Positions 171 through 61,640 of a stretch of DNA of 61,640 bases are shown here, piece by piece. Under the pieces are notes generated by a model. It did not search any database and was not told the DNA's origin. It was given only the letters and a program-made list of their open reading frames with translations. Source of the stretch: a virus. Numbering within the stretch: position 1 is the stretch's first letter; each line of letters begins with the position of its first letter. Both the position numbers and the translations under genes were made by a program. The stretch lies in IMG/VR virus record IMGVR_UViG_3300001688_000037. One strand, 5' to 3'.

Positions 171-210
171 GTTATAACTAACATAATCACAGGAGGCTTA
201 ATTATTTAGA
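171..210 (-). promoter_or_regulatory. Bipartite motif copy A (TCTAAA-N16-GATTATGTTAGTTATAAC), candidate phage-specific promoter upstream of the SNF2 gene
   Basis: tttaga at 205-210 and taatc at 184-188 on the plus strand, exactly 16 nt apart. Same architecture as 7 other copies. RBS and ATG follow. Confidence 0.55.
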
Positions 211-1953: not shown

Positions 1954-2137
1954 CCTGTACACTCCTTTACGATCCTGTTATTTTGCTCCTGTGAGCTCCT
2001 GTGTGCCTCACAGAGCCACAAAAAGTATCTTAGGGTAGATTTCCCTACCCCCTAAAAATTAACCTGCCTTAAATCGGCTAATTTTCAGTATGTATCTATT
2101 ATACAACCCTTATATAAAAATAGCAACAAAAAAAAAA

Positions 2138-2177
2138 GAGGGGAGATACCAGCCAATAATAGCCAATATCTCCCCTC
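2138..2177 (-). terminator. Rho-independent terminator after the endolysin gene
   Basis: 11-bp stem gaggggagata/tatctcccctc, followed on the minus strand by a T10 run (plus A-run 2128-2137). Confidence 0.75.
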
Positions 2178-2206
2178 TCACTCTATAGGTAAATTATAGG
2201 AGTGCC

Positions 2207-10668: not shown

Positions 10669-11093
10669 TACGCCTGCACCACCCTTGCTAAGATTACATA
10701 CATATTATTGTTATTGAGTTTCTGCACCGCCACCAGATCTCCCTTTTTTAGCCCATCGGTATAGGTTATCTTAGTTTGTCTGGTAGTTTTTGTATCTGGA
10801 TCATGGTAAGTACCCTCACTATCCACCGTACCAAACGGATCCTCTTGTGTGGTATCTACTGTTACTCCAGATACATACGGTACCTTAAGTGTGCGTGTAT
10901 AGCCAGATACTAAATAATCCGCTATGTAGAGATCCTCTGCATTGAGCACCAGATCATCTATTTTCACGCTAGTAGCACTTTGCATAACGCCTATCTGGAG
11001 GGTAACTGGGTTATCTTTACCGCCCTGCTCCCTCATAATGTTAAGCATTTCTGCGTAGTATTGATCGTTTTTCATACCGCCTACATCACTCAT
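10668..11093 (-). CDS. Baseplate/tail spike-associated protein, XkdR-like
   Basis: 141 aa. Translationally coupled to both neighbours. Module position. Confidence 0.4.
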   Translation of the reverse strand: MSDVGGMKNDQYYAEMLNIMREQGGKDNPVTLQIGVMQSATSVKIDDLVLNAEDLYIADYLVSGYTRTLKVPYVSGVTVDTTQEDPFGTVDSEGTYHDPDTKTTRQTKITYTDGLKKGDLVAVQKLNNNNMYVILARVVQA

Positions 11094-12292
11094 AGCTGTA
11101 CCTCCTTGTTATTCTTATCAACAATTTTCCATCCCTGCCCTGTACCGCCATTTGCCATGTAGTAACCGTAAGCCTCATTCCATGTAGAAATATTAGCCTT
11201 TACCACATTCCAGTACTTGTTAAGGATTGCAAACGGAGGATTACTCTTAGATCCGTAGGTACTTGTAACTGTGGTAGTATTGCTACTTCCAGAGCTACTA
11301 GATCCGCTCTCTATAGAGCTCTCTGTGTTACTGGCTTTCTTTGTATCCATCATTTGCTTAAGGGTAACTGTTAAGCTCATAGTGGCTACTCCGTTCTGCC
11401 ATGTATGGGTATCTGCATCTATCCACACAACACCGCTAAGCCCTGTGGAGCTATCCGATACTACCGCTCCAGCCCCAGTAACAGCTCCATTAAAGTTTAC
11501 ACACTCCAGCGTAAAGGTTTTTTCCACGCCCACAAACATACTCTTAGCTGTGGTAGTAGGATCCTTACCCTCCTCTTTAGTGTAAACCTGCTGGAAAATA
11601 CCGTAGGCTTTCACATCTGCATCATTTTGTACTACTCCTGTTTGGTTTCCCTCCCCATCATAGATCCGCACTTTATTAACCATGTTATTAAGTGTTTCCC
11701 TGTAATTTGAGGAGGTAATATTACTATCCTCTGTGAGTTCGATCTCACAAACTACATTACCCATCTCCTCTACATTGAGGTATCCCTTTTTTGCGGTTAC
11801 ACGGTAGCTTACTCCGTTCTGCTGGTATGCCTGTGTGTATGCCTGCATGATGATCTCATAAATACTCACATTTTGTACTATGAGTTTCTGGTTTAATCCT
11901 GTGCTGGCTAAGTTCCCTACTGGGATCTCCATATCATCACATACCATCTGGGTAATGCCCTCTGCTGTTTTACCGCTAAAATTGTAAGTAGCCTTACTTT
12001 TGAGGGTATAATATAACAGATCGTAAGCTGTATAGGTTACCGTACCAGTAACACTACTAGCCTCACGATCTGTTACAAAACCTCTAAAGAGCTCCGTTAC
12101 ACCATCATCCTCAAAGAGGTAAATGGGATCTGCTAATCCTATATTAAGAGGAGTAATATTTTTATCCAGAGGAGCGTTTACTACTTTGAGCTCCAGCTTT
12201 CTAGCTACCTCCGATTTAGAGCCTCCCCAGCTCATAGAGGCTACATACTCTGTAATATCCTGCTCTCCATGTACAACTATCACTCTCTCCAC
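11090..12292 (-). CDS. Baseplate hub / late-control-D-like protein (XkdQ-like)
   Basis: 400 aa. Position after the LysM protein and tape measure. Ser-rich linker before the C-terminal domain. Confidence 0.5.
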   Translation of the reverse strand: MERVIVVHGEQDITEYVASMSWGGSKSEVARKLELKVVNAPLDKNITPLNIGLADPIYLFEDDGVTELFRGFVTDREASSVTGTVTYTAYDLLYYTLKSKATYNFSGKTAEGITQMVCDDMEIPVGNLASTGLNQKLIVQNVSIYEIIMQAYTQAYQQNGVSYRVTAKKGYLNVEEMGNVVCEIELTEDSNITSSNYRETLNNMVNKVRIYDGEGNQTGVVQNDADVKAYGIFQQVYTKEEGKDPTTTAKSMFVGVEKTFTLECVNFNGAVTGAGAVVSDSSTGLSGVVWIDADTHTWQNGVATMSLTVTLKQMMDTKKASNTESSIESGSSSSGSSNTTTVTSTYGSKSNPPFAILNKYWNVVKANISTWNEAYGYYMANGGTGQGWKIVDKNNKEVQL

Positions 12293-12297
12293 CTCCT

Positions 12298-12927
12298 TTA
12301 AGGGATCGTTAATACCTGCCCTGCATAAATTAGGTTAGGGTTTTTAATCTTATCCGCATTAGCACTAGCTATTTTTGGATATTCTGCTCCATTACCGTAA
12401 AACTGCTTAGCAATTTTCCATAAGCAATCTCCGCTCTTAACTGTGTAAGTCCTGCCAGCATTTGTAGTAGGAGCCTGTACCGCTCTAACAGAGGGTTTTA
12501 CTGTAGCTATGGTTACTGTAGCTTTTCTGGTTTTTATCTTCTTATACTCCTTAAGAGCCATCGTGTAATAAATATCTCCAGTAGCATCTCTTTCTCCATA
12601 ACTAAAGCTCTCAATACTGCACTCCATGTTAAGTACCCCAGTAATGATAACCCTAATAGGCTCTCCAGATTTCCTCCACGCCTCGATCTTCTCTACATAG
12701 GCTAAGGGCTCTTTTCTGCCAGAATTATTACTAAAATTATAATCCTTAGCTGGAAAGAAAGAGCTAAGGGAAATCTCCCTTAGCCCTGTTTTACCCATGA
12801 GGTTTACATCTCCTATCTGGATTACATTAACTACTGTATTCCTGCTCATTACCGTAACAGTAAACTCACTAGGCTTTACTGGGAGCTGGAGCTTACTATC
12901 ATTCTCTTTTTGTATCCAAAATTCCAT
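12298..12927 (-). CDS. LysM-domain tail protein (XkdP-like)
   Basis: C-terminal LysM: YTVKSGDCLWKIAKQFYGNGAEYPKIASANADKIKNPNLIYAGQVLTIP. Directly after the tape measure. Confidence 0.65.
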   Translation of the reverse strand: MEFWIQKENDSKLQLPVKPSEFTVTVMSRNTVVNVIQIGDVNLMGKTGLREISLSSFFPAKDYNFSNNSGRKEPLAYVEKIEAWRKSGEPIRVIITGVLNMECSIESFSYGERDATGDIYYTMALKEYKKIKTRKATVTIATVKPSVRAVQAPTTNAGRTYTVKSGDCLWKIAKQFYGNGAEYPKIASANADKIKNPNLIYAGQVLTIP

Positions 12928-16445: not shown

Positions 16446-16495
16446 GATAATAGCCCTCCTATAATCTAAAAATTTTACCTATAAAACAAAAATAA

Positions 16496-16529
16496 GCGGA
16501 GAGGAATGGTTTTTCACACTCCTCTCCGC
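16496..16529 (-). terminator. Hairpin/terminator after the tail tube gene
   Basis: 10-bp stem gcggagagga/tcctctccgc, followed by TTATTTTTGTTTT on the minus strand. Confidence 0.6.
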
Positions 16530-16549
16530 CTTAACTGCACCTATCCTAC

Positions 16550-25787: not shown

Positions 25788-25823
25788 TGTTTTATATCCT
25801 CCTTTACTTTTCTGTAATAAAAA

Positions 25824-25845
25824 TAGCCCTCATTTTCTAGGGCTA
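25824..25845 (-). terminator. Hairpin between terL and portal
   Basis: 7-bp stem tagccct/agggcta, followed by ATTTTTATTA on the minus strand. Confidence 0.45.
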
Positions 25846-27327
25846 CTAAATCATAAAATCTTCTCTATTCAGTACACGGATCTCATTACCTGCATCCGCT
25901 ACCGTCATAGCAAAATCTAAAGCATCAAATAAATCATCGTGATCCACTTCTGGGAATAGTAACAGGCACTCCTCCAGATCATCCATATTCTCTCTAAAGA
26001 ATACCTTACCATTTTCAAAGTTTGCGGATCTACGCATGGCTCTAGTTACTTTATCTTTGCTGGTATTGATATTGATAATAGGTAAAAGGCTTAATCTCCT
26101 AAGCTCCTGTGCTAAGGATTTCTGGTAAGCTACCGTTTCTACGCCTACCCTCTCTACCATAGGGTACTTATCCCTGCCATAAGAGATAATTGTGTTAAGC
26201 TGGCTGTTAAATGTAAGCCTCTCCTTTACATATTCCAGTACATACACATTTTTCTCATCATCTACGCCAATCATCATAAGTACAAAGTAATCGTTATCCT
26301 CGTTTTCCTTTTCCGATATGGCAAGATCGGCTCCCATGTATACCCTAACCTTTTTCCATTGATCTATACCCTCCGCATTTTTAATACGGATCTTTGCTGT
26401 TTGGAAATCATAATCCAGCTTGTACTCCTCATAATACTTAAAATACTTAGCCTTAAAGATTTTACCCTTAGCCAGCTCTGTATCATTCTGGTACTGCATA
26501 TTAAAGATAATCTTTCCACTTTCCGCTCTTATCTGTTTGAGCTTTTCTATGGTAAACTTGCCCTCCCAGAGAGAGCTCTCTACACCGTCAATAATCTGGA
26601 TAGCTTTCTGGATATTTATAGTGTAGTTACCGCTCTTAATCAAATCCTCATACAGATCCAGCGGATTATATCTGGTACCTAAGATATGGATCTCTCCATC
26701 TGGCTCCAGAGTAGGTATTAAGGAGCTGTAAAACCATTCCTTTAGGTTAGCCCTCTGGCGTTCCGTTCTGGCGTTTTCCAGCCCCACCAAATCATCTCCG
26801 ATAATAATATCAAAGTGCTTAGAGATAACCGCTCCAGAGGCTCCCAGAGCGGTTACCGTTGCCTCTTTCTTAATAATGTTACGCTTATTAACAGTAAACT
26901 CCCTATCATTCCACACATTATCCTTATGGGTTTTCCAATCTCCGAAAATTCTAAGCAAATTATCATTTTGCTCAAAATGGGTACGGATTTCCTTAAGAAA
27001 AGCCTGTGCCTGTGTCTGGGTTTTACTGCCTATCATAATACGGATATTAGGATCTCTTAGGATCCTAGTAATGCAATAATCCACATCTCCTACAGTACTC
27101 TTACCAAAACCTCTAGGAGCTAGATCCAGCGTACTCTTATTTGAGGATATATTTGAGATGATACTTTTATGGAGCTCCTGTACACTTCTCTTAGTGATAT
27201 ATGTACATACTAAATAGTAAGCTACCTCAAAAGAGGCATTTTCAATAAGGTATTTTACCATCATATCCTTATTATCAGCCTGCTCTAGCATCTCCTCTAC
27301 TATTTGCACTCTACCATAATCTAACAC
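25846..27327 (-). CDS. Terminase large subunit
   Basis: 493 aa. Walker A-like PRGFGKST. Nuclease-half acidic motifs. GTG start 10 nt after GGAGG. Upstream of the portal gene. Confidence 0.8.
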   Translation of the reverse strand: MLDYGRVQIVEEMLEQADNKDMMVKYLIENASFEVAYYLVCTYITKRSVQELHKSIISNISSNKSTLDLAPRGFGKSTVGDVDYCITRILRDPNIRIMIGSKTQTQAQAFLKEIRTHFEQNDNLLRIFGDWKTHKDNVWNDREFTVNKRNIIKKEATVTALGASGAVISKHFDIIIGDDLVGLENARTERQRANLKEWFYSSLIPTLEPDGEIHILGTRYNPLDLYEDLIKSGNYTINIQKAIQIIDGVESSLWEGKFTIEKLKQIRAESGKIIFNMQYQNDTELAKGKIFKAKYFKYYEEYKLDYDFQTAKIRIKNAEGIDQWKKVRVYMGADLAISEKENEDNDYFVLMMIGVDDEKNVYVLEYVKERLTFNSQLNTIISYGRDKYPMVERVGVETVAYQKSLAQELRRLSLLPIININTSKDKVTRAMRRSANFENGKVFFRENMDDLEECLLLFPEVDHDDLFDALDFAMTVADAGNEIRVLNREDFMI

Positions 27328-27360
27328 ATCCGCTTAACCTCCTCTCTACGCAAATTAAAA

Positions 27361-27380
27361 AGGAGCCTTTTACAGCTCCT
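27361..27380 (-). terminator. Hairpin/terminator upstream of terL
   Basis: AGGAGC-TGTAAAAG-GCTCCT followed by TTTTAATTT on the minus strand. Confidence 0.55.
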
Positions 27381-27566
27381 CTAGTGCATTGCGATATAAA
27401 TTATTAGGGCTATTGCCATTATTGCCAGCATGAGCACATCCCACGCTAGGAGCCCTCTCCATTTATTACTCTCTGGGAGGCTATTAAAGTACTCCGCTGT
27501 TTTCCAGATACAGATAATTACTGCTACCAGTATTACTATAGCCAGAATAGTTAAAAGTGTTTGCAT
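27381..27566 (-). CDS. Small membrane protein
   Basis: 61 aa, two hydrophobic helices. Confidence 0.5.
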   Translation of the reverse strand: MQTLLTILAIVILVAVIICIWKTAEYFNSLPESNKWRGLLAWDVLMLAIMAIALIIYIAMH

Positions 27567-27710: not shown

Positions 27711-28226
27711 TTACCACTCACAGCCTGCCTCCTTAAATGCTTTATGTATCTTAGGCTCCTGTATTGCCAGCCAATCTACCATCTCCTCATTTTGAGCCCA
27801 ACACTTACTACCGTAAGCATTTTGCCAGAGCCCACTCTCATAAAGAAAAGCATGGATAATCTCATGGCGGAGTACTTTACGCTGGTATGCCTTAAGATCC
27901 TTAACACTCTCTGCACTCTGCTTATAATTAAAGATCAAAATCTCCTTAACCTGTGTATCACACCATCCAGCCGCCTCTCTATTAAAGCGGTAATCATCCT
28001 CCTCAATAATAAGGATAGTATACTGGGTACCTAACACACTTACATAGCTTTTATCCTCTCTGTGAGGCTGTGTACACTCTGTTTCTCCCAGCTCTGTAAT
28101 ATCTACAGTAATCTCCATCCCTGTATCACATAGAGAGAGAGTAACCCTATCATTATCATCAATTTTAAGCACCTCTCCTACCATGCTCTTATAGGATTTC
28201 AAATACACAATATCTCCTAATTTCAT
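27711..28226 (-). CDS. Putative zinc metallopeptidase (HExxH)
   Basis: 171 aa. QRKVLRHEIIHAFLYESGL contains HEIIH. Family not assigned. Confidence 0.4.
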   Translation of the reverse strand: MKLGDIVYLKSYKSMVGEVLKIDDNDRVTLSLCDTGMEITVDITELGETECTQPHREDKSYVSVLGTQYTILIIEEDDYRFNREAAGWCDTQVKEILIFNYKQSAESVKDLKAYQRKVLRHEIIHAFLYESGLWQNAYGSKCWAQNEEMVDWLAIQEPKIHKAFKEAGCEW

Positions 28227-28351
28227 TTCTCCAGCTCCTCCTCTGTACTATACTCATCCGTATTACGGTTAATAGATATAAGGGCTGTAATAAAAATTCC
28301 TACACAGGCTCCTATCACTAAGCATACACCGCCTACAATCACATAGCCCAT
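28223..28351 (-). CDS. Small membrane protein (42 aa)
   Basis: Not in the ORF track. ATG 28351 follows AGGAGGTGGCAGAT. ATGA overlap with the next gene. Reads MGYVIVGGVCLVIGACVGIFITALISINRNTDEYSTEEELEK. Confidence 0.5.
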   Translation of the reverse strand: MGYVIVGGVCLVIGACVGIFITALISINRNTDEYSTEEELEK

Positions 28352-28375
28352 ATCTGCCACCTCCTATAATGCAAA

Positions 28376-28396
28376 GGAGGGCTTTTTCTGCCCTCC
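28376..28396 (-). terminator. Hairpin after thyX
   Basis: ggagggc-tttttct-gccctcc. Confidence 0.45.
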
Positions 28397-28410
28397 CTGC
28401 TCCTGCTTAT

Positions 28411-29388
28411 TTATTCTGCTACCAGATCCTCAAAGATCTTAGGTACTTCTCTCTGCATATCATGTAACAAAGGGATAGCTACCTCTACCATCTGTGGATG
28501 AGGCTTTCCTGTAACGCCTACCGCTCTCAAATTAAAGAAATGCCTCCAGCCCTTAAGGTTAGTAGTCATGGCTACCTCTGTTTTAAGGCTTGTAGGGAGT
28601 ACTGCTCTAGCCTCCTGTGGAGTAGCTCCATCTGCTAACATTCTAAGGTAGCTCTTTTCTGCCTCCTCACAGGCACTTACCCACGCTCCGTATCTCTCAC
28701 TCCAGTTATCCACCGTAAGATCCACGCCATCTACCTTTAAGTAACATGGCTCAATAACAGTAATTTCTCCAGCCTTAGAGCCATAGTTACAATATCTGGT
28801 ACTTTCCTGTGCAAAAGAGGCTACTCTGTGGCGTACTATCTCATGTGATACGCCTCTATCTACAGTAAATACTACTGTAATATCCTCATGGATCAATCTT
28901 TCCTCTTTACCCAGCGGTTTAGGATCTACCTCTACTGGAGAAATTTCTCCATCATAAGGCATTAAAAGAACATCCTCAAAATATACCTCATATTTTCTCG
29001 ATCTAAGGATATTCACTAAGCCTCTGGAGAAATTAAAGCCCTTATCTGTAGCTAAGATAATAAACTCTCTCCATGCTCTAAGATTTCCAGATACTAAGTA
29101 GCTCTCAATACCTGTAAATCTAAGAAATGTATTATAGCCCTCATTTTCTGCCAGCCATGCTACAATACTCTTAAGCTGTTTGTATTCTTCCTCCATAAAT
29201 GCTACTACTAAGGAGGAGTGCTCTATCATAGCGGTATGATTACTCTTAATAAGAGATCTTACCATCTTCTTAGCGGATCCCTCTTTGATTTTATCCTCAC
29301 TCTTATAGCATATTCTGGCTACTCTCTCGATCTTATCTGTAGGATCTGCAATCTTTACAATCTCATAACCTGCTTTTACTACCTGCAT
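28411..29388 (-). CDS. thyX: Flavin-dependent thymidylate synthase ThyX
   Basis: ThyX signature RHRVASFAQESTRYCNY (RHRxxSxxxxSxRY). Start set to ATG 29388 (MQVVKAGYEIV), 8 nt after GGAGG. Confidence 0.85.
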   Translation of the reverse strand: MQVVKAGYEIVKIADPTDKIERVARICYKSEDKIKEGSAKKMVRSLIKSNHTAMIEHSSLVVAFMEEEYKQLKSIVAWLAENEGYNTFLRFTGIESYLVSGNLRAWREFIILATDKGFNFSRGLVNILRSRKYEVYFEDVLLMPYDGEISPVEVDPKPLGKEERLIHEDITVVFTVDRGVSHEIVRHRVASFAQESTRYCNYGSKAGEITVIEPCYLKVDGVDLTVDNWSERYGAWVSACEEAEKSYLRMLADGATPQEARAVLPTSLKTEVAMTTNLKGWRHFFNLRAVGVTGKPHPQMVEVAIPLLHDMQREVPKIFEDLVAE

Positions 29389-29389
29389 C

Positions 29390-30004
29390 TTAAATACCTC
29401 CGCTGTACACAGTTTCAATAACTGCCTTAATAATATCCTCTGGATCCGCTCCTGCTGGTACTGTTACCTCCAAAGTACCTACACAAACGCCCTTACCATC
29501 CTCTGTATCTGCAAAAACAGGGTTAAAAGTGCATTTAGGCTCTTTGCTATGGAGCATTTCCTGTACTTTCTTGATTTCCGCCTTACTCTCCTCATCTGGA
29601 GTATGTAAGATCTTTCCTGTGCCAGTTACCATTTTAATAAATTCCTCTGGATCTACATCCTCTGGAAACTTAACAATAATAGGCTTTACGCTACAAGCCT
29701 CCGCCTCTACTATGGCTCTCATAATCGGATCCAATCCATAAAGAATAGTATCCAGCCTATCATCATGCTTAGGTTTTACAGCCTTTTCTCTTTCTGCCTC
29801 AATAGCATCAATCTCAAACTGGATATACTCCTGTGCTTTCTTAAGATCCTGCACAATATCATCCTTACGCCCTGCTCTGGCAATATACTTTACCGCATTT
29901 CCCAGATTGAAATTTAAGCCCCAATCACGGATAACATCCTTAGGCTCATACTTTCTACCCTCTACATAGTGTGAGGGCTGTTTAATAACATCTCTTTTAC
30001 TCAT
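29390..30004 (-). CDS. DUF3310-like protein with C-terminal extension
   Basis: N-terminal KQPSHYVEGRKYEPKDVIRDWGLNFNLGNAVKYIARAGRK pattern. Start set to ATG 30004 behind AAGGAG. Confidence 0.5.
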   Translation of the reverse strand: MSKRDVIKQPSHYVEGRKYEPKDVIRDWGLNFNLGNAVKYIARAGRKDDIVQDLKKAQEYIQFEIDAIEAEREKAVKPKHDDRLDTILYGLDPIMRAIVEAEACSVKPIIVKFPEDVDPEEFIKMVTGTGKILHTPDEESKAEIKKVQEMLHSKEPKCTFNPVFADTEDGKGVCVGTLEVTVPAGADPEDIIKAVIETVYSGGI

Positions 30005-30160
30005 GGCTCTACGCTCCTTTTCTGTTTTGATACTTAACTTAATCACATTCCAGATCATTCTTTAGAGATTTCACTCCCTTTTGAATTAAACCTATAGGAT
30101 TTTTGCTATGTACTCCTCAAAATCTTTAGTATTACTTAGAGTTTTTGAGGGATACTAAGC

Positions 30161-30628
30161 CTATTTACCCTCTAAGAGCTTAGCTATGGTATCCAGCCTA
30201 TCCTTATCTGCCTGTGATAGCTCTGTACTACCTGTGCTATCCTGCCGATCTGTAGCCTCTCCCATAAGTAAAAGATCCAGCTTAACCGCTCTCTCTAAGT
30301 CCTGTACATTACGGATCTTAAGCTCTCCTGTGGCTATCTTCTTACTAGCCTGTGCCATGAGGTTATTTATCATAATACGGTATCTGGTTTTAACATCGGT
30401 AGTCTGTGAGTTTAAGGCATTATTACTAAGAGCGTTGTTTTTGGCATCCTCAATCTCTCTCTGCTTTACACGATCTACCCAGCTAAAGGCTCTACTCCAG
30501 CCTGCTACCGTTCTTTCCGTTCTCATAACCTTTTCTGCTACCGCCTTAAGAGATCTCTTATCTCCTAACTGGTAATATATCTCAAAAGCCTCTCTCTGGA
30601 GCTTATTCTCTTTGCTCAACTCTGCCAT
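30161..30628 (-). CDS. Terminase small subunit-like HTH protein (putative)
   Basis: 155 aa. N-terminal HTH-like segment (KRSLKAVAEKVMRTERTVAGWSRAFSW) plus coiled coil. First gene after a 330-nt non-coding region. Confidence 0.4.
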   Translation of the reverse strand: MAELSKENKLQREAFEIYYQLGDKRSLKAVAEKVMRTERTVAGWSRAFSWVDRVKQREIEDAKNNALSNNALNSQTTDVKTRYRIMINNLMAQASKKIATGELKIRNVQDLERAVKLDLLLMGEATDRQDSTGSTELSQADKDRLDTIAKLLEGK

Positions 30629-32694: not shown

Positions 32695-33096
32695 TTAATC
32701 CACCTCCAGATGAGCCTTTAGCTCCTTTTGTATTTTCTTTATACCGCTATTTATATTTTTACTCACTACCGATTGATCCACGCCCATAACATAGGCTACC
32801 TCCTCCTGTGAGTATCCCAGTACTAAAGTATAAGCTATGCTCATGTACTGATAGTGAGATAATTTTCCATTTAAGTATCCCAGATTAAACTTTTTTCTAT
32901 CGTGCTTATTATAGTTTTCTGGCTCTATCCCTGTTACTCTCTTTAGATCTACCAAAATACAGGTAGCTACTCTATCTCCCTTTTCACTAAGGCTCTCTAG
33001 CCCTCCCCAGTTTCTTAAAAAGTTCCTTATATTCTTAGGATCCTTATAACTCAATCTAAGTAGCTGATCGTTTAGTATGTTTCTTACTGCCCCCAT
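32695..33096 (-). CDS. ArpU-like / sigma-70 region-4-like transcriptional regulator (candidate late activator)
   Basis: 133 aa. C-terminal HTH LGYSQEEVAYVMGVDQSVVSKNINSGIKKIQKEL. Size and position upstream of the packaging genes. Confidence 0.45.
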   Translation of the reverse strand: MGAVRNILNDQLLRLSYKDPKNIRNFLRNWGGLESLSEKGDRVATCILVDLKRVTGIEPENYNKHDRKKFNLGYLNGKLSHYQYMSIAYTLVLGYSQEEVAYVMGVDQSVVSKNINSGIKKIQKELKAHLEVD

Positions 33097-34443: not shown

Positions 34444-34483
34444 GTGATAACTAACCTAATCACTTTTGAGGGCTATATTTAGA
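34444..34483 (-). promoter_or_regulatory. Bipartite motif copy B (TCTAAA-N16-GATTAGGTTAGTTATCAC)
   Basis: tttaga 34478-34483 and taatc 34457-34461, spacer exactly 16 nt. Preceded by a terminator, followed by an RBS. Confidence 0.55.
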
Positions 34484-34503
34484 GAAAATTTATAAAAAAA
34501 AAT

Positions 34504-34525
34504 AAGGTAGCTGTTACACTACCTT
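34504..34525 (-). terminator. Rho-independent terminator after the MazG-like gene
   Basis: AAGGTAG-TGTAACAG-CTACCTT followed by ATTTTTTTTT on the minus strand. Confidence 0.7.
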
Positions 34526-34828
34526 ACCTGCCATTCTTTCCTTAGTTCGATTTACCTTAAAGAGCTTGATAGCCTGTATATCCTCCTCTGGGATCTGGAG
34601 TAAGTGCTTAATCTGCTCCAGCATAATCTCTACATCTGCGATCTCCTCTACCAGATTATCTAAGGCTACCTGCTCCTTAGAGGTAGTTTCCTGCCCTGTA
34701 CCTCTGGATCTACGATACTTATTTATTGCCTGTATCAGTTCTGCACATTCCTCTATAAGCTGGTTACTCTGTGCCTCATATCCATAATGCTCCGCAATCT
34801 TTTTATTTTCCGCTACAATATCACACAT
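34514..34828 (-). CDS. MazG-like nucleoside triphosphate pyrophosphohydrolase
   Basis: 104 aa. LIEECAELIQAINKY ... LVEEIADVEIMLEQI (EExxE/ExxD helices typical of the MazG fold). Confidence 0.6.
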   Translation of the reverse strand: MCDIVAENKKIAEHYGYEAQSNQLIEECAELIQAINKYRRSRGTGQETTSKEQVALDNLVEEIADVEIMLEQIKHLLQIPEEDIQAIKLFKVNRTKERMAGKVV

Positions 34829-37256: not shown

Positions 37257-37296
37257 GTGATACTTAATATAATCACTTTTGAGGAGGATATTTAGA
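37257..37296 (-). promoter_or_regulatory. Bipartite motif copy C (TCTAAA-N16-GATTATATTAAGTATCAC)
   Basis: tttaga 37291-37296 and taatc 37270-37274, spacer 16 nt. Directly after a terminator. Confidence 0.55.
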
Positions 37297-37304
37297 TAAA
37301 AAAA

Positions 37305-37328
37305 GAGGATCCTTTTTATCGGATCCTC
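37305..37328 (-). terminator. Rho-independent terminator
   Basis: GAGGATCC-GATAAAAA-GGATCCTC followed by TTTTTTTATC on the minus strand. Confidence 0.75.
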
Positions 37329-37343
37329 CGCTCTCATGTACTG

Positions 37344-38980: not shown

Positions 38981-39049
38981 AATCTCAATCCTCCTATAGT
39001 TATTATATAGCACCTGTATAATTATTTCAATACCCCTCATTTTATAGGG

Positions 39050-40669: not shown

Positions 40670-40698
40670 ATTATATACCCCCTATATAATAATGTCAA
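40670..40698 (-). promoter_or_regulatory. Consensus sigma-A/sigma-70 promoter TTGACA-17-TATAAT
   Basis: Minus strand reads TTGACATTATTATATAGGGGGTATATAAT. -35 = rc of 40693-40698, -10 = rc of 40670-40675. Confidence 0.75.
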
Positions 40699-41518: not shown

Positions 41519-41547
41519 ATTATATACCCCCTATATAATATTGTCAA
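41519..41547 (-). promoter_or_regulatory. Consensus sigma-A/sigma-70 promoter TTGACA-17-TATAAT
   Basis: Minus strand reads TTGACAATATTATATAGGGGGTATATAAT. Spacer nearly identical to the 40670-40698 promoter. Confidence 0.75.
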
Positions 41548-47050: not shown

Positions 47051-47096
47051 GTGATATTGATACTTAACCTAATCACTTTTGAGGGAATTTTTTAGA
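47051..47096 (-). promoter_or_regulatory. Bipartite motif copy D (TCTAAA-N16-GATTAGGTTAAGTATCA)
   Basis: tttaga 47091-47096 and taatc 47070-47074, spacer 16 nt. After a terminator, before an RBS. Confidence 0.55.
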
Positions 47097-47105
47097 TAAG
47101 AAAAA

Positions 47106-47130
47106 GAGGAGCCTTTTACAGCCCCTCCTC
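47106..47130 (-). terminator. Hairpin/terminator after the methyltransferase gene
   Basis: GAGGAG(GG)GC-TGTAAAAG-GCTCCTC followed by TTTTTC on the minus strand (imperfect stem). Confidence 0.5.
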
Positions 47131-47132
47131 CG

Positions 47133-47724
47133 TTATACTTCATTTCCCCAGCAATCCCAGCCATCTACCGCCTGCCTTGCAAAGAGTTCTATTTTATGTA
47201 GCCCCCCCCCCTGCTAAGAGTTTTACAATACGATCTCTAGTTTCTGCTGGCTTTTTACTATGCTCCTCAATATGGCTAAGGATAACGCTATGTACTCCTG
47301 CATCTGCTCTCTTAGGCTTTCCTTTAATACCTAAGAGGCACAGCTCCGCATTAGCTCTAGTCCAGTTACCCATACCCCAGAAAAGGCTATCCGCTTTCTT
47401 ATTCTGCTTAACCCATGTAAAAGCACAGGTTTTATAATTAAATCCCCACGCCCTCATAAGATCAAACGCCTCCTCTAACATCGGCATAGTAACCCACATA
47501 AAGAGCACACAATCCTCATCCGCAAGATCCGCTACTGGGAGCTTTTTAATATCCTGTATGCTCATTACATCATACTTACAACCAGCTCCTCTATCTCCTG
47601 CCAGAGCTTTATCTCTATAGCTCCACGGAGGATCTGCATAGATTATCTGGTATTTTTGCTCCGTATTAAAAATATCTACTTTCAAAGTAATACCCTCCTT
47701 TTGTGTTTGATCGATCCTAATCAC
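47133..47724 (-). CDS. MT-A70-family N6-adenine DNA methyltransferase, interrupted by a frameshift at a G10 tract (as read: 47194..47724, 176 aa)
   Basis: DPPW motif (IIYADPPWSY). The as-read frame ends ..KLLAGGGAT*. With one G fewer it reads AGGGLHKIELFARQAVDGWDCWGNEV*, ending at 47133. Confidence 0.75.
47202..47211 (-). other. Homopolymer tract (C10 on plus, G10 on the coding strand) inside the methyltransferase 3' region
   Basis: gta g cccccccccc tgc read directly. The longest G/C homopolymer I saw in the window. Confidence 0.9.
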
Positions 47725-47746
47725 AAAAGGAGGGTATTGTTAGATA

Positions 47747-52341: not shown

Positions 52342-52381
52342 GTGATACTTAACCTAATCTCAAACAGCGGAGATTTTTAGA
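52342..52381 (-). promoter_or_regulatory. Bipartite motif copy E (TCTAAA-N16-GATTAGGTTAAGTATCAC), overlapping the sigma-factor stop codon
   Basis: tttaga 52376-52381 and taatc 52355-52359, spacer 16 nt. Confidence 0.55.
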
Positions 52382-52985
52382 GAGCAACACCAGCAAAAAC
52401 AAATTTTTTTCTAATACTCTTGAAATAGTAGTTAGCGGTAGCTGGAGTACATTTAAGAGCCTTTGCTACCTCTCCCTTAGTACCTCCTGCCATAAGTACA
52501 TCTACTGCTACCTGCTCTTTCTCATTGAGATTTAGTGATCTAAGCAACTCCATAAACTCAAAAGAGGTAATATCCTCACACTCCACAGTAAAGGAGCTAT
52601 CCATTACATCTCCGCCATCTTTGTTAATTTCTACTAAGCCCTCATAGCTAACAGGAGTGGATCCTGTATAGCGTTTCTTTCTGGTAGCCTCGTTATAGAG
52701 GCGGTTAAGATGCTGGCGTACATACACCTTAAGGAGATTAGAAAATGTGAGCCCTAAGCTGGTATCAAAATCCTCAATAGCCCTAAGCATAGGTATGTAG
52801 CTCTCACTCACAAGATCCTCATGCTCTGCATTAGGAATACTGCTTACATAGCTCCCTACTAAAATGTTTATGAGCCCTGTATTTTGAGTGATAAGCTCCT
52901 GTAAATACATCTCATTTCTACTCTCACGGTATAAAACCACTAAATCCTCATTACTTCTTAATCCTGCGTTTAATCCTGTACTCAT
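52377..52985 (-). CDS. Phage-encoded sigma-70-family sigma factor
   Basis: 202 aa. Region-2-like LYLQELITQNTGLINILVGSYV...EDLVSESYIPMLRAIEDFD. Region-4 HTH TKGEVAKALKCTPATANYYFKSIRKKF. Confidence 0.65.
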   Translation of the reverse strand: MSTGLNAGLRSNEDLVVLYRESRNEMYLQELITQNTGLINILVGSYVSSIPNAEHEDLVSESYIPMLRAIEDFDTSLGLTFSNLLKVYVRQHLNRLYNEATRKKRYTGSTPVSYEGLVEINKDGGDVMDSSFTVECEDITSFEFMELLRSLNLNEKEQVAVDVLMAGGTKGEVAKALKCTPATANYYFKSIRKKFVFAGVAL

Positions 52986-54396: not shown

Positions 54397-54435
54397 AGCT
54401 TGTACCTCCTGTTATTATAATTTTCTCTATCGTAA

Positions 54436-54452
54436 AACTTGTTAAACAAGTT
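54436..54452. promoter_or_regulatory. Operator-like palindrome O1 (AACTTGTT-A-AACAAGTT)
   Basis: Perfect 8+1+8 inverted repeat in the early-operon leader. Confidence 0.5.
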
Positions 54453-54500
54453 CTCGTAGGCATAAAAAGGTTAGGGTATCCCCATTATATACTTTCTCCC

Positions 54501-54513
54501 CTTGTCAAACAGT
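54501..54513. promoter_or_regulatory. Operator-like site O2 (CTTGTCAAACAGT)
   Basis: 11/13 match to the O1 core CTTGTTAAACAAG. Overlaps the leftward promoter -10 region. Confidence 0.4.
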
Positions 54514-54539
54514 ATAATACTTGTTTTTCCGTCTGTCAA
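54511..54539 (-). promoter_or_regulatory. Leftward early promoter candidate TTGACA-17-TATACT
   Basis: Minus strand reads TTGACAGACGGAAAAACAAGTATTATACT. Confidence 0.55.
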
Positions 54540-54548
54540 TATAAAAAT

Positions 54549-54563
54549 ACAGTTTAACAATAC
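54549..54563. promoter_or_regulatory. Operator-like site O3 (rc ATTGTTAAACTGT)
   Basis: 10/13 match to the O1 core. Lies between the divergent promoters. Confidence 0.35.
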
Positions 54564-54579
54564 TTTTTCTAAGTTTCTC

Positions 54580-54608
54580 TTTACTTTTCTATTGTTTAGC
54601 TGTATAAT
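54580..54608 (+). promoter_or_regulatory. Rightward promoter candidate for the repressor gene (TTTACT-17-TATAAT)
   Basis: tataat at 54603-54608, preceded by tg. -35-like tttact at 54580-54585. RBS GAGAGGAGG before ATG 54641. Confidence 0.5.
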
Positions 54609-54640
54609 TACAGTATCCTTAATAGAGAGGAGGTGCTACA

Positions 54641-55009
54641 ATGTCTGAAAAATCTCCTCTTAATGAGAGCTTTTCTAGGGCTATGGCTTACTACAAAGCC
54701 CTTACAGGAAAAAACAATAAGGAGATAGCCGATGCACTAAGCCTACCTGCTACTACCGTTTCTGCATGGAATACAGGGAGGCACCTACCAGATATGGATA
54801 GGTTACAAAGGCTTGCTACCTACCTAAACGCTCCGCTGGATCAGTTTTTCGATTTCTCACTCGATAGGATCCCAGCTAAAGAGCTTTCCGATCTTCATAA
54901 TTTGATAGATACGGATGAGGAGCTAGTAAAATTCCTTAAGGTTTTTATCCAACTCTCCGATGAGGATAAGCACCTATTAACTATGTTAGCTATCAAAATA
55001 AATAAGTAG
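54641..55009 (+). CDS. XRE/cI-like repressor (only plus-strand gene)
   Basis: 122 aa. HTH NNKEIADALSLPATTVSAWNTGRHLPDMDRLQRLATYL. Divergent from the early operon. Confidence 0.65.
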   Translation: MSEKSPLNESFSRAMAYYKALTGKNNKEIADALSLPATTVSAWNTGRHLPDMDRLQRLATYLNAPLDQFFDFSLDRIPAKELSDLHNLIDTDEELVKFLKVFIQLSDEDKHLLTMLAIKINK

Positions 55010-55022
55010 CTAACAGGGGAGA

Positions 55023-55042
55023 GGGGAGGCGTAAGCCTCCTC
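55023..55042 (+). terminator. Terminator of the repressor gene
   Basis: ggaggc-gtaa-gcctcc stem-loop followed by tcttttcttttgc. Confidence 0.65.
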
Positions 55043-55053
55043 TTTTCTTTTGC

Positions 55054-55805: not shown

Positions 55806-55845
55806 GTGATAACTAACCTAATCACAAAGGAGGCTTATTTTTAGA
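55806..55845 (-). promoter_or_regulatory. Bipartite motif copy F (TCTAAA-N16-GATTAGGTTAGTTATCAC)
   Basis: tttaga 55840-55845 and taatc 55819-55823, spacer 16 nt. Confidence 0.55.
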
Positions 55846-55859
55846 GATATTCTCAAAAT

Positions 55860-56099
55860 TTATTTAGTTTCTCTTGTACGGAGATCCATTACACTAATTT
55901 TCTCTGCTGGGTTATTGATCGGATGCTTATGATCTACTACTATTTTGTGTTGCATTACCATAGCTACCATCTCTCCACACATTTCCAGCTCCTCCATACT
56001 TCTAAAGAAAATAGGGAGCACATCTCCATCCTCTGTTAAATATACTGGGATGATCCTCCCTTTAGGGATCCCCTCCTCACATACTGGGTTAAAAGCCAT
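55860..56099 (-). CDS. Hypothetical protein
   Basis: 79 aa. Overlaps the dnaB 3' end by 11 nt. Confidence 0.5.
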   Translation of the reverse strand: MAFNPVCEEGIPKGRIIPVYLTEDGDVLPIFFRSMEELEMCGEMVAMVMQHKIVVDHKHPINNPAEKISVMDLRTRETK

Positions 56100-58088: not shown

Positions 58089-58105
58089 CTCTGCTTACCT
58101 CCTTT

Positions 58106-58143
58106 GTAACTAAACATAATCATAAAAAGGGCAAAAATTTAGA
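58106..58143 (-). promoter_or_regulatory. Bipartite motif copy G (TCTAAA-N16-GATTATGTTTAGTTAC)
   Basis: tttaga 58138-58143 and taatc 58117-58121, spacer 16 nt. The -35-like half overlaps the terminator stem. Confidence 0.5.
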
Positions 58144-58164
58144 GGAGCTTTTTAGGGCTCCTCC
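58142..58164 (-). terminator. Rho-independent terminator after the replisome organiser gene
   Basis: 7-bp stem gaggagc/gctcctc. Confidence 0.55.
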
Positions 58165-58169
58165 ATTTC

Positions 58170-59657: not shown

Positions 59658-59697
59658 TTGATAATTAACCTAATCATGGAGGAGGAGGTTTTTTAGA
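59658..59697 (-). promoter_or_regulatory. Bipartite motif copy H (TCTAAA-N16-GATTAGGTTAATTATCAA)
   Basis: tttaga 59692-59697 and taatc 59671-59675, spacer 16 nt. After a terminator. Confidence 0.55.
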
Positions 59698-59727
59698 TAC
59701 TCCTCAAAATTTAGGTAAAAAAAAATA

Positions 59728-59751
59728 GAGGAGAGCTGTTACACTCTCCTC
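59728..59751 (-). terminator. Rho-independent terminator
   Basis: GAGGAGAG-TGTAACAG-CTCTCCTC followed by TATTTTTTTTT on the minus strand. Confidence 0.75.
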
Positions 59752-60009: not shown

Positions 60010-60039
60010 ATTATACTATATACCCCCTCAAAGTTTCAA
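60010..60039 (-). promoter_or_regulatory. Sigma-A-type promoter TTGAAA-18-TATAAT
   Basis: Minus strand reads TTGAAACTTTGAGGGGGTATATAGTATAAT. Shares GGGGGTATATA with the 40.7 and 41.5 kb promoters. Confidence 0.6.
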
Positions 60040-61640
60040 CAACTTATTAAGGATAGTTTTTATATCCGCCTTAGTTCCCTTACCATCTACAACTCTCTCA
60101 AAGAGATCCTTATTTTCTATGAGATACTCCTCTACGCCCTCATCTACGGATCCTTTAGCCACTAAAGAGATCACATTTACAGTACCTACGGTACCTATTC
60201 TGTGGGCTCTATCCTCTGCCTGTGCATTTTCTCCGATATTCCAGAGCTTATCTATAAAGAATACATAAGAGGCTTTATTGAGAGTAAGCCCTGTACCCAT
60301 AGCTCCTATAGTGCCTATTGCCAGCTTACAGTTAGGATCATTCTGGAAACGCTCTACCGCTTTCTGCCTATCCTCTGGAGATACCTTACCAGTAATGTAG
60401 ATAGGGTTATACTCCATGAGAGCCTCTCTATATACCTCTGTGATCTGCTCCCATTGAGAGAAAATAATAGCCTTATTTCCATTAGGGATAATCTCCTCAT
60501 CCAGCATATCCTTTAATCTCTCCAGCTTAGGGTTATCATCGGTAAAGAGCCCTCCTGTTAATTGTCTTAGCCTCAAAGTACAGGAGAGAGGGTTTACGGA
60601 TGCTAAGATATTTTCCATATCCTCAATAATGCCCTGCTTAATATCTCTATAGAGTTTCTGCTGTGCTTTAGTAAGCTCTACAAATTCTGTGCTATATACC
60701 TTAGGAGGGAGATCCAATACCTCCTCTTTCTTTCTACGGAGCATAACCTTATTAAGCTCTGCATTAAGGCTCTCTAAATTCTTATGCCCTACTACCTTAT
60801 ATCCTCCATAGCCTCCCATTACACAATAGGTATTTCTAAAGGAGTAAAAGCTCCTTTTTTCTACCTCCAGCCATGTAAGGATATTCCAGAGATCCTCCGC
60901 CTTATTCATCGGAGTACCAGATAAGCCTATCTTAACTGGAGCTTTCAAAAATCTAAGAGCCTTACCCTGCTGGCTACTACCATTTTTAGCCTTATGGATC
61001 TCATCCACGATAATAGCCCCTATGTAGCCATCCTTAATACCCATATAAAGAGCATCCTGTATCTTTTCATTACGGAGGCTCTCAATATTGATAATACCAA
61101 AATACTCCGATCCTGTGTACCAGCTCTGGAGCTGTGCTACTCTTATATCCATTGTTTTACCATCCACCATAACAGCCTTTTCTCTGGAGTGGATGGAGAT
61201 CTCTTTCTCCCAGTTATACTTAACGGAGTTTACTCCGCATACAATGAGGCACTTTACCAGCTCATGCTTTCTAGCTACACAAATATCAATACTTTCCTTT
61301 GTCTTACCTAAGCCCTGCTCATCTCCTATAAGGAGCTTATCTCTCTCCATGCCATAGTTAAAAGCCTCTATCTGGTGTGGGAGGGGCTCTGTGGTAAAAT
61401 CAAAATCCACTACAGGCTTAATACCCTCTAGCCTCTTAGCGGTAGCCTCCCTTTTATCCTCTATCTCCTGTGTTTTGAGGGCTCCTACTATACCATCCTC
61501 CGCATTGATATTACTAAGCCCTACTTTCTCCACTAAGTTAGGGAGCTCATGGCTAGGTATTTCCCATGCCCTATCCTCTGGTAAATATCTCCTCTCTGCC
61601 AGCTCCTTTACCTTAGCCACAGTACTAGGATCATACTTAA
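60028..61640 (-). CDS. SNF2-family helicase (5' end continues across the junction to ATG at window position 149)
   Basis: DEQGLGKT (motif I), DEIHKAKN (motif II), C-terminal helicase motifs (GTGLTLNKASYVFFID, QAEDRAHRIGT). The frame stays open upstream of the GTG at 61620. Confidence 0.85.
   Translation of the reverse strand, partial: KYDPSTVAKVKELAERRYLPEDRAWEIPSHELPNLVEKVGLSNINAEDGIVGALKTQEIEDKREATAKRLEGIKPVVDFDFTTEPLPHQIEAFNYGMERDKLLIGDEQGLGKTKESIDICVARKHELVKCLIVCGVNSVKYNWEKEISIHSREKAVMVDGKTMDIRVAQLQSWYTGSEYFGIINIESLRNEKIQDALYMGIKDGYIGAIIVDEIHKAKNGSSQQGKALRFLKAPVKIGLSGTPMNKAEDLWNILTWLEVEKRSFYSFRNTYCVMGGYGGYKVVGHKNLESLNAELNKVMLRRKKEEVLDLPPKVYSTEFVELTKAQQKLYRDIKQGIIEDMENILASVNPLSCTLRLRQLTGGLFTDDNPKLERLKDMLDEEIIPNGNKAIIFSQWEQITEVYREALMEYNPIYITGKVSPEDRQKAVERFQNDPNCKLAIGTIGAMGTGLTLNKASYVFFIDKLWNIGENAQAEDRAHRIGTVGTVNVISLVAKGSVDEGVEEYLIENKDLFERVVDGKGTKADIKTILNKLLKL
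61553..61640. repeat. Terminal overlap copy 2 (identical to 1..88)
   Basis: Exact 88-nt identity with the start of the window. Confidence 0.95.

Follow-up and report, generated by a model that had tools for sequence, protein, structure and literature searches.

We analyzed IMG/VR virus record IMGVR_UViG_3300001688_000037, a stretch of 61,640 nucleotides (nt) referred to here as the window, for a repeated bipartite DNA element and for the phage gene of a 202-amino-acid (aa) sigma-70-family protein that ends in one copy of this element. The window is a complete circular phage genome of ~61.55 kb with an 88-bp exact terminal direct repeat (1-88 and 61553-61640). Nearly all of its genes lie on the minus strand. 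They encode a large serine integrase (226-1962), a CHAP/LysM endolysin, the small and large terminase subunits and a replication and recombination set (PolA, SSB, primase, DnaB, a DnaC-like protein, RecA, Rha and others), and the source is a temperate phage of gut Clostridia. Among 50,697 deposited phage genomes there was no match to 15.6 kb of the DNA by megablast nor to the sigma protein by tblastn, and the best identity of the large terminase to deposited phages was 28%, to Bacillus and Weizmannia phages. Relatives were found both in contigs from Lachnospiraceae bins and, as a prophage, on a 202-kb contig from the metagenome-assembled genome of an uncultured Clostridium sp.

The window contained ten copies of TCTAAA-N16-GATTA(G/A/T)GTTAnnTATCA, all intergenic and all on the minus strand, with a predicted 5' untranslated region of 20-27 nt to the start codon. 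The blocks that they head are those of SNF2, the replication initiator, DnaC/DnaB, Rha, SSB/PolA, the methyltransferase, exonuclease/accessory genes, repair, SLT and the terminase/structural genes. The first-pass annotation had listed eight copies (A to H). All eight were recovered in place on the minus strand, each with a 16-nt spacer, but two had been missed (30027-30066 and the TCTAAC variant at 47705-47744). The two blocks were as described there, while the conserved part proved longer, running from a T at -2 through TATCA at 34-38. The ten copies are listed below with their scores from a position matrix trained solely on elements from other contigs (SD, Shine-Dalgarno sequence; HTH, helix-turn-helix).

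171-210, minus strand: copy A, TCTAAA-N16-GATTATGTTAGTTATAAC, heading the SNF2 gene (start at 149, crossing the junction); 42.6 bits.
30027-30066, minus strand: previously unlisted copy, heading nucleotide-kinase-like and thymidylate-synthase-like genes that lead into the large terminase/structural module; no anti-SD arm and no upstream terminator; 35.7 bits.
34444-34483, minus strand: copy B, after the terminator at 34500-34529; 46.4 bits.
37257-37296, minus strand: copy C, after the terminator at 37304-37329, spacer CCUCC predicted to pair with the SD; 41.3 bits.
47057-47096, minus strand: copy D, after the terminator at 47102-47131; 48.7 bits.
47705-47744, minus strand: previously unlisted copy, a TCTAAC variant with a degenerate downstream block, heading a DNA-methyltransferase-like gene (TTG start at 47685); 28.6 bits.
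52342-52381, minus strand: copy E, overlapping the sigma stop codon, no upstream terminator, predicted spacer-SD free energy -13.9; 48.8 bits.
55806-55845, minus strand: copy F, heading the Rha and Cro-like HTH genes; 48.6 bits.
58104-58143, minus strand: copy G, heading the DnaC-like and DnaB genes, with the terminator at 58140-58165 overlapping TCTAAA and its T-run within the spacer; 37.9 bits.
59658-59697, minus strand: copy H, heading a block that ends with a replication-initiator-like gene, ~30 nt after the terminator at 59728-59751; 47.5 bits.

The matrix separated these ten sites (28.6-48.8 bits) from the next best site in the window, at 5.9 bits, and from shuffled sequences, which reached at most 7.6 bits; nothing was found on the plus strand. 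With one mismatch or fewer allowed, TCTAAA-N16-GATTA matched the window 12 times against ~3.2 expected, and none of 100 shuffles reached 12. The one-mismatch match at 32696-32722 was taken as chance, as it lies at a gene junction, carries none of the remaining motif and is not among the ten matrix-scored sites. Because the terminal repeat closes the window into a circle, the SNF2 gene crosses the junction and is headed by copy A, which bears out the first-pass assignment of the SNF2 block to this copy.

To follow the element beyond the window, viral contigs were scanned with the exact pattern. The scan returned 119 loci, mostly from one clade of ~60-kb phages, with ~90 distinct versions of the element that reduced to 59 non-redundant ones; these 59 were used for the spacer, hairpin and terminator statistics. 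The regular expression fixed some positions by construction and presupposed a spacing of 16, and conservation beyond the fixed positions was seen for the T at -2, A/T at 6-8, GT at 20-21, G28, A31 and TATCA at 34-38. The element is thus ~40 bp long, TnTCTAAAwwT-N11-GTGATTAgGTTAnnTATCA, with a variable middle. Other exact matches to the pattern in viral contigs were inside coding sequence and had none of the flanking features. Independently of this presupposed spacing, we measured the distance in 53 viral and 3 genome loci that had been gathered via the sigma protein alone. In these loci TCTAA and GATTA were separated by 16 nt in 291 places (98 distinct sequences), and the 20 matches at spacings of 17-19 were all coding or on the opposite strand, lacked the other features and were attributed to chance. 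The distance from TATCA to the SD varied from ~5 to 35 nt. A rigid upstream geometry combined with a floating downstream distance fits recognition of duplex DNA by a two-domain protein and not an RNA hairpin.

The orientation of the element was equally strict. In the ~50 loci whose sigma orthologue is at least 62% identical, 284 matrix matches lay on the sigma strand and 0 on the other, and they were intergenic and upstream of a ribosome-binding site (RBS). The fixed distance between the blocks with a variable spacer, within the ~16-18 bp of bipartite sigma-70-family-dependent promoters, and the position at the start of a unit in gene orientation are both those of such promoters. A conserved T-A at positions 34/35, 7-8 nt past GATTAG, is likely the start site, judging from its position and conservation. 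As a SigA promoter the element was rejected: no TAnnnT of the conserved block is preceded, at 16-18 bp, by a TTGACA-like hexamer, and a simple promoter scan lists 0 of the 10 sites.

The gene that ends in copy E encodes the candidate reader of the element.

52377-52985, minus strand: divergent sigma-70-family protein of 202 aa: a sigma-2-like helical domain at 12-106, then a disordered linker and, at 142-201, a helical C-terminal domain with a putative HTH.

Its stop codon lies inside the TCTAAA of copy E, as the first-pass annotation had stated. By profile comparison we assign this open reading frame (ORF) to the sigma-70 family as a divergent member. It matched the PHROG sigma family phrog_351 (E 1e-16), TIGR02937 (E 9e-7) and Pfam Sigma70_r2, the last with E 1.2e-4 and 22.2 bits, which is below the 24-bit cut-off. 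When a profile of 15 homologues was compared with PDB, residues 26-105 aligned to region 2 of RpoS, SigA and HrdB (E ~5e-6), so that the region of core binding and -10 recognition is present in the ORF. The C-terminal domain, putatively region 4, had a weak match to a GerE-type HTH (E 0.006). An AlphaFold model with a pLDDT (predicted local distance difference test) of 72 consists of two helical domains and a disordered linker, the C-terminal four-helix domain (142-201) having a pLDDT of ~80; in this model the architecture looks like that of a two-domain protein. The significant Foldseek matches in PDB were all sigma factors (SigH, SigB, SigD, SigA, WhiG and RpoS), at template-modeling (TM) scores of only 0.3-0.44. 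Assignment to a subfamily failed on both counts: NCBIfam matches were scattered over ECF, SigF, SigH, RpoD and FliA models, all far below cut-off, and Foldseek matched SigH, SigB, SigD, SigA and WhiG alike.

The element and the sigma gene occurred together. Each of the ~50 loci with an orthologue of at least 62% identity carried several elements, and in every one of them one element lay within ~15 nt of the end of the sigma match. In two more distant loci (L171 and L172; sigma 30% identical, ~6 kb, tightly packed genes) neither the element nor a repeated alternative motif was found. A Lachnospiraceae contig with a sigma of 47% identity (L122; 13.7 kb covered) had one good site and one variant with a different upstream block. 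Intergenic sites at 10827-10870 and 11553-11600 of this contig keep TGTGATTAGGTT and have TCTTAG or TATAAA in place of TCTAAA. The sequence of this contig hints at an upstream block that shifts along with the sigma factor. Co-evolution of sigma and motif in these distant relatives (L122, L171 and L172) was considered and set aside, as they offer too little sequence to demonstrate it.

Upstream of the sigma gene we found promoters of the host type.

54511-54539, minus strand: host-type promoter TTGACA-17-TATACT of the DUF7307-primase-sigma operon; kept in two related loci (L120 and L121, the latter a prophage in contig CAURBW010000010.1).
54641-55009, plus strand: CI-like HTH repressor gene, divergent, from TTTACT-17-TATAAT (54580-54608); the sole clear plus-strand gene.

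These two promoters stand back to back in the intergenic region between the CI-like gene and the sigma operon, and the pair is kept in L120 and L121. With the near-consensus host-type promoter of this CI-like switch in front of the sigma operon, the sigma factor would be made by the host polymerase, and this layout speaks for the link between sigma and element independently of their co-occurrence. The region 54400-55050 as a whole resembles the lambda switch, and a bidirectional GGAGG/CCTCC terminator (~55015-55045) parts it from the convergent block of Rha and the Cro-like HTH protein. Further host-type promoters precede the integrase (2098-2126), a small HTH gene (60010-60039) and two to three moron-like genes (41519-41547, 40670-40698 and 39002-39030). 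The genes behind host-type promoters are those expected to be expressed without the phage sigma.

Many elements directly follow a terminator. Intrinsic-terminator-like hairpins had been reported immediately upstream of copies B, C, D, G and H, and all five were verified. Two other copies have a predicted hairpin of a different build, wrapped round the putative promoter, and the copy at the head of the methyltransferase gene forms a hairpin that covers the SD.

34500-34529, minus strand: intrinsic-terminator-like hairpin with a T-run, directly upstream of copy B.
37304-37329, minus strand: equivalent hairpin, upstream of copy C.
47102-47131, minus strand: equivalent hairpin, upstream of copy D.
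58140-58165, minus strand: equivalent hairpin, upstream of copy G.
59728-59751, minus strand: equivalent hairpin, upstream of copy H.
171-210, minus strand: hairpin of copy A, right behind the integrase gene; the SD AUCACAGGAGG is paired with the spacer CCUCCUGUGAU and followed by UUAUUUUUAUG; terminator-like and wrapped round the putative promoter; predicted free energy -26.9.
55806-55845, minus strand: hairpin of copy F; AAUAAGCCUCCUUUGUGAU pairs with AUCAC..AAAGGAGGCUUAUU, followed by UUAAUG; wrapped and terminator-like; predicted free energy -25.8.
47705-47744, minus strand: hairpin of the methyltransferase-head copy, 17 bp, AAUACCCUCCUUUUGUG / CACAAAAGGAGGGUAUU, burying the SD; predicted free energy -25.7.

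The stems of the terminators at 47102-47131, 37304-37329, 58140-58165, 59728-59751 and ~55015-55045 have mostly GGAGG/CCTCC-type arms, the same words as the SD and anti-SD. Among the 59 non-redundant elements, 28 stood directly after a hairpin with a T-run, the hairpin sometimes overlapping TCTAAA as it does at 58143. With 28 of 59 elements right behind a terminator, transcription has to restart there. The 31 elements with no upstream terminator had stronger predicted pairing between spacer and SD (mean -14.1 versus -9.0 for the 28 with one; p = 0.002) and longer T-runs between SD and start codon (p = 0.014), and longer T-runs went with stronger hairpins (rho -0.40, p = 0.0015). In the window, the two wrapped hairpins (-26.9 at 210 and -25.8 at 55845) are followed by the tails UUAUUUUUAUG and (CUUA)UUUUAAUG, respectively; their loops are larger than usual, and a terminator scan with loops of 3-8 nt did not list them. 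As copy A (210) lies 16 nt past the integrase stop and the integrase has a host-type promoter of its own, the hairpin is well placed to bar integrase transcripts from the lytic genes. Copy E (52381) follows the sigma gene with no terminator between them, so early transcripts made by the host enzyme would run into it.

The first-pass annotation had noticed CCTC in several spacers but had overlooked its role as an anti-SD arm that pairs with the RBS. In the window the spacer was predicted to pair with the SD of the first gene in 9 of the 10 copies, at -9 to -27 kcal/mol. CCTCC was present in 20 of the 59 spacers and CCTC in 31, whereas composition-matched shuffles gave 0.8 and 3.7, respectively. 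Spacers paired better with their own downstream region than with those of other elements (mean -12.3 versus -10.5 kcal/mol), none of 10000 permutations being as low, and when the conserved GTGAT/ATCAC stem was removed 5 of 10000 were as low. The predicted probability that the SD is unpaired was 0.22 for element-linked genes in the window and 0.58 for 89 other genes (p = 6e-4), and it climbed to 0.54-0.90 for RNA beginning at +35. Since the 5' arm sits between the two promoter blocks, any start past the -10 block leaves this arm out.

Comparison of orthologues supported the pairing. At the methyltransferase head the flanks of the SD changed together with their partners (ACCC/GGGT, CGCC/GGCG, AGCC/GGCT and AACC/GGTT, and TTTATG/CATAAA versus TTTTGTG/CACAAAA), and 5 of 16 pairs had compensatory double changes. 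The covariation score was 0.269 against 0.189 when shuffled (0 of 500 as high), and slid controls gave at most 0.186. The Rha-head orthologues were folded one sequence at a time, and 9 of 9 formed the hairpin at -20 to -27 kcal/mol (z -4 to -7.5) with differing flanking pairs. In the copy at 30066 and in the post-sigma copies of the clade with a sigma of 63% identity there is no hairpin at all, yet both blocks are intact.

The proposal of the first-pass annotation was a phage-specific promoter class, possibly read by the phage sigma factor, and each sequence-level test that we ran (spacing, orientation, terminators, co-occurrence, sigma identity and the switch) agrees with it; lacking the anti-SD arm, the proposal was incomplete but not mistaken. 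The reading that we favor, with moderate confidence, is that the elements are promoters of the phage sigma, placed behind or inside a hairpin that terminates transcription or hides the RBS. Host RNA polymerase with SigA would transcribe the switch operon and thereby yield the phage sigma, which would steer the host core polymerase to the ten elements, with TCTAAA as the -35 block, GATTAG as the -10 block and a start near the conserved TA. These steps are suggested by the geometry of the motif, the gene order and the co-occurrence. Most of these promoters would then be sealed against incoming transcription in one of two ways. The first type of seal would be a separate terminator hairpin that abuts or overlaps the -35 block. 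The second would be the wrapped hairpin, with the 16-nt spacer (anti-SD) as its 5' arm and the SD of the first gene as its 3' arm, often with a U-run up to the start codon. A transcript that comes in from upstream would contain both arms and would be terminated, have its first RBS hidden, or both, whereas one begun inside the loop would lack the 5' arm, continue and be translated. The sealing and the escape from it are proposed because of the predicted structures and their covariation. On these folding predictions, the first genes are probably translated only from transcripts that begin at the element. The rigid and conserved motif, its occurrence together with sigma, and the predicted, covarying hairpins are what we observed; from these we infer that the elements act as promoters, where transcription starts, that it depends on sigma and what the hairpin does.

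A stronger form of this reading, which we hold tentatively and with somewhat less than even confidence, is that the element is a self-insulating cassette of ~65 nt in which an orthogonal sigma-specific promoter lies in the loop of its own spacer-SD hairpin. Such a cassette would terminate and silence read-through and be bypassed only by sigma-started transcripts, and it would be clade-wide in temperate phages of Lachnospiraceae and other Clostridia. If this is true, the cassette would be the clade's standard seal of lytic blocks against transcription driven by the host, such as that begun at the integrase promoter or the early ones.

Several observations weigh against the sigma-promoter reading or its sealing component. 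Common descent confounds the link between sigma and element, as all carriers belong to one phage clade. The C-terminal recognition helix differs between the 63% clade (TNATVSWHIK) and this phage (TPATANYYFK), yet TCTAAA is identical in both. The loops of the wrapped hairpins, at 10-25 nt, are larger than those of typical intrinsic terminators, and about one quarter of the non-redundant elements, including 30066, have neither an upstream terminator nor a strong hairpin. Hiding of the SD touches only the first gene of a block. One promoter class heads all blocks, the structural one included, and cannot alone explain middle versus late timing. In the late region, terminator-like hairpins on the minus strand at 27359-27382, 25822-25847, 16494-16531 and 12760-12787 have no element after them; late transcription might pass them by leakiness or antitermination. 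No host-type promoter follows these late hairpins either, and one of them lies just before the start of the large terminase gene and one just past its stop.

Of the other explanations, the one that survives best is that the elements are promoters read by a host alternative sigma factor of the SigD/FliA type, or by SigA with a phage activator, the phage sigma having other targets or another role. Promoters of the sigma-28/SigD (FliA) class have the form TAAA-N15-GCCGATAA. The CTAAA in the upstream block and a downstream block that starts with GAT recall them, TCTAAA thus holding the CTAAA/TAAA core of their -35 elements, and the constancy of TCTAAA while the recognition helix varies among clades also speaks for a reader other than the phage sigma. 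The first-pass annotation had drawn the same analogy from the upstream half, and to that extent the likeness stands as a resemblance. Membership in the class was rejected because neither the -10 block nor the spacing fits: GATTA(G/A/T)GTTA (GATTAGGTTA) stands downstream in place of GCCGATAA, and the distance from TAAA to GAT is 16 and not ~18, i.e. ~2 nt shorter. The phage sigma itself matched the FliA/WhiG model at E 0.007, no closer than it matched SigF- or SigH-type models. A host reader also sits poorly with the restriction of the element, among the viral contigs scanned, to those of the sigma-bearing clade, with the ends of all sigma orthologues of at least 62% identity within ~15 nt of an element, and with the placement of sigma behind a host-type promoter while most other blocks stand behind the element. 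We consider this explanation unlikely.

Less likely still is an element that acts only as RNA, in the form of a conserved hairpin flanked on its 5' side by UCUAAA, whose loop (GAUUAGGUUAAGUAUCA) would bind protein and which would serve antitermination or unmasking of the RBS by a phage protein, or processing by an RNase, with no initiation of transcription. The strong covarying predicted hairpins, the sequestered SD and the U-runs behind the strongest hairpins are what such an element would have. On the other hand, 28 of the 59 elements lie just behind a complete terminator with its T-run; RNA encoded beyond a terminator cannot keep it from acting, and therefore the genes behind it would have no transcript. 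The 16-nt distance between the blocks is constant whatever the stem length, while the 3' arm floats over 5-35 nt, and some copies (30066 and the post-sigma copies of the 63% clade) have both blocks and no hairpin. A search of the whole window against Rfam 15 at gathering thresholds matched no family. These points leave the RNA-only explanation improbable.

Very improbable is a third explanation, an operator array for a phage DNA-binding regulator (the TGAT-N10-ATCA palindrome) or a cruciform exposing a single-stranded -10 as in the virion-polymerase promoters of phage N4, since the invariance of TGAT...ATCA in most copies and the inverted repeats that flank the -10 block are set against an asymmetric element always in gene orientation, a TGAT-ATCA distance that shifts at the methyltransferase head while pairing stays (which favors RNA pairing over a fixed operator), a complementarity that, at just 4-5 bp in about half of the elements, would not suffice for a cruciform, and the fact that no giant virion RNA polymerase is encoded, the longest ORF being 928 aa.

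To our knowledge, phage-encoded sigma factors with private promoters are known from a few cultured phages only. A literature search found the string GATTAGGTTA in unrelated papers only and nothing relevant on phage sigma factors or promoter motifs in Lachnospiraceae. SPO1, a large virulent phage of Bacillus subtilis, runs a sigma cascade of gp28 followed by gp33/gp34 with class-specific pairs of -35 and -10 sequences. It shares with the present system a Firmicute phage sigma made from host-type promoters that switches the promoter class for later genes, although SPO1 is virulent and uses two successive sigmas with different consensus sequences. The sigma factor gp47 of Salmonella phage 7-11 reads late promoters of the form GTAAtg-N16-aCTA, for which the 16-bp spacer was shown experimentally and the starts lie 6-9 bp downstream, and the promoters of phiEco32 gp36 have the consensus tAATGTAtA (PMC8948821). 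The parallels with these two phages are a highly divergent sigma-70-family protein of the phage that works with the host core, ~6-10 phage-specific promoters and host-type early promoters; with 7-11 the element further shares its bipartite form and the 16-bp spacer. The consensus sequences are unrelated, however, and the present system, known from sequence alone, belongs to a temperate phage of a Gram-positive anaerobic host. Its putative promoters head nearly all blocks and not just the late ones, and they are fused to terminators or RBS-hiding hairpins, which are undescribed for 7-11 or phiEco32.

The hairpin arrangement has its closest counterpart in phage T4, where the genes for lysozyme (gene e) and I-TevI each have an RBS-sequestering hairpin with a late promoter in its 5' arm, so that early read-through is silenced (PMC3014915). 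The predicted geometry is that of gene e: the RBS lies in the 3' arm, transcripts from the promoter itself would lack the 5' arm and longer ones would be silenced. As in gene e, the RBS is predicted to be paired in transcripts derived from upstream. In T4 this concerns a few individual genes and a single-block late promoter (TATAAATA) read by gp55. Here, in contrast, the spacer that separates the two promoter blocks serves as the 5' arm, the arrangement recurs at most promoters and across the clade, and the strongest copies carry a U-run and are terminator-like too. A hairpin that wraps the promoter and terminates transcription or hides the RBS would extend to promoters throughout a genome what T4, as in gene e, does at single genes. 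Such a design also suggests how a temperate phage with its genes on one strand might keep host-driven transcripts, such as those of the integrase and the early operon, from expressing lytic genes. The system amounts to a complete pair of sigma factor and promoter predicted for a large clade of uncultured gut Clostridia phages and, if confirmed, would give Lachnospiraceae, a group that is difficult to engineer, an orthogonal sigma/promoter part.

Two of the host-type promoters, at 40670-40698 and 41519-41547 on the minus strand, were perfect 12/12 matches and shared the unit TTGACAwTATTATATAGGGGGTATATAAT; a third, at 39002-39030, matched 11/12. Each of the two perfect promoters follows a terminator hairpin and heads an ORF with no Pfam match, of 236 aa and 110 aa, respectively. 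The two ORFs look like moron or immediate-early genes expressed without the phage sigma. The lysis module is closed by a very strong terminator (2098-2179, minus strand; 20-bp stem, T9), directly after which TTGCTA-17-TATAAT heads the integrase gene (226-1962). By this arrangement, we regard the integrase as a separate host-driven unit wedged between the late operon and copy A. The packaging module has an unusual insertion, the small terminase gene (30161-30628) being set apart from that of the large terminase (25846-27327); between the subunits (27711-30628 area) lie a copy of the element, the nucleotide-kinase-like and thymidylate-synthase-like genes and two small ORFs. Lastly, in the groups of copy H and copy F (59700-59720 and 55848-55866) a short word, ATTTTGAGG(A/G), precedes TCTAAA by 3-10 nt. 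It is kept at the orthologous sites in five related loci (L005, L015, L032, L120 and L121) and may be an extra recognition site or a site for a regulator.

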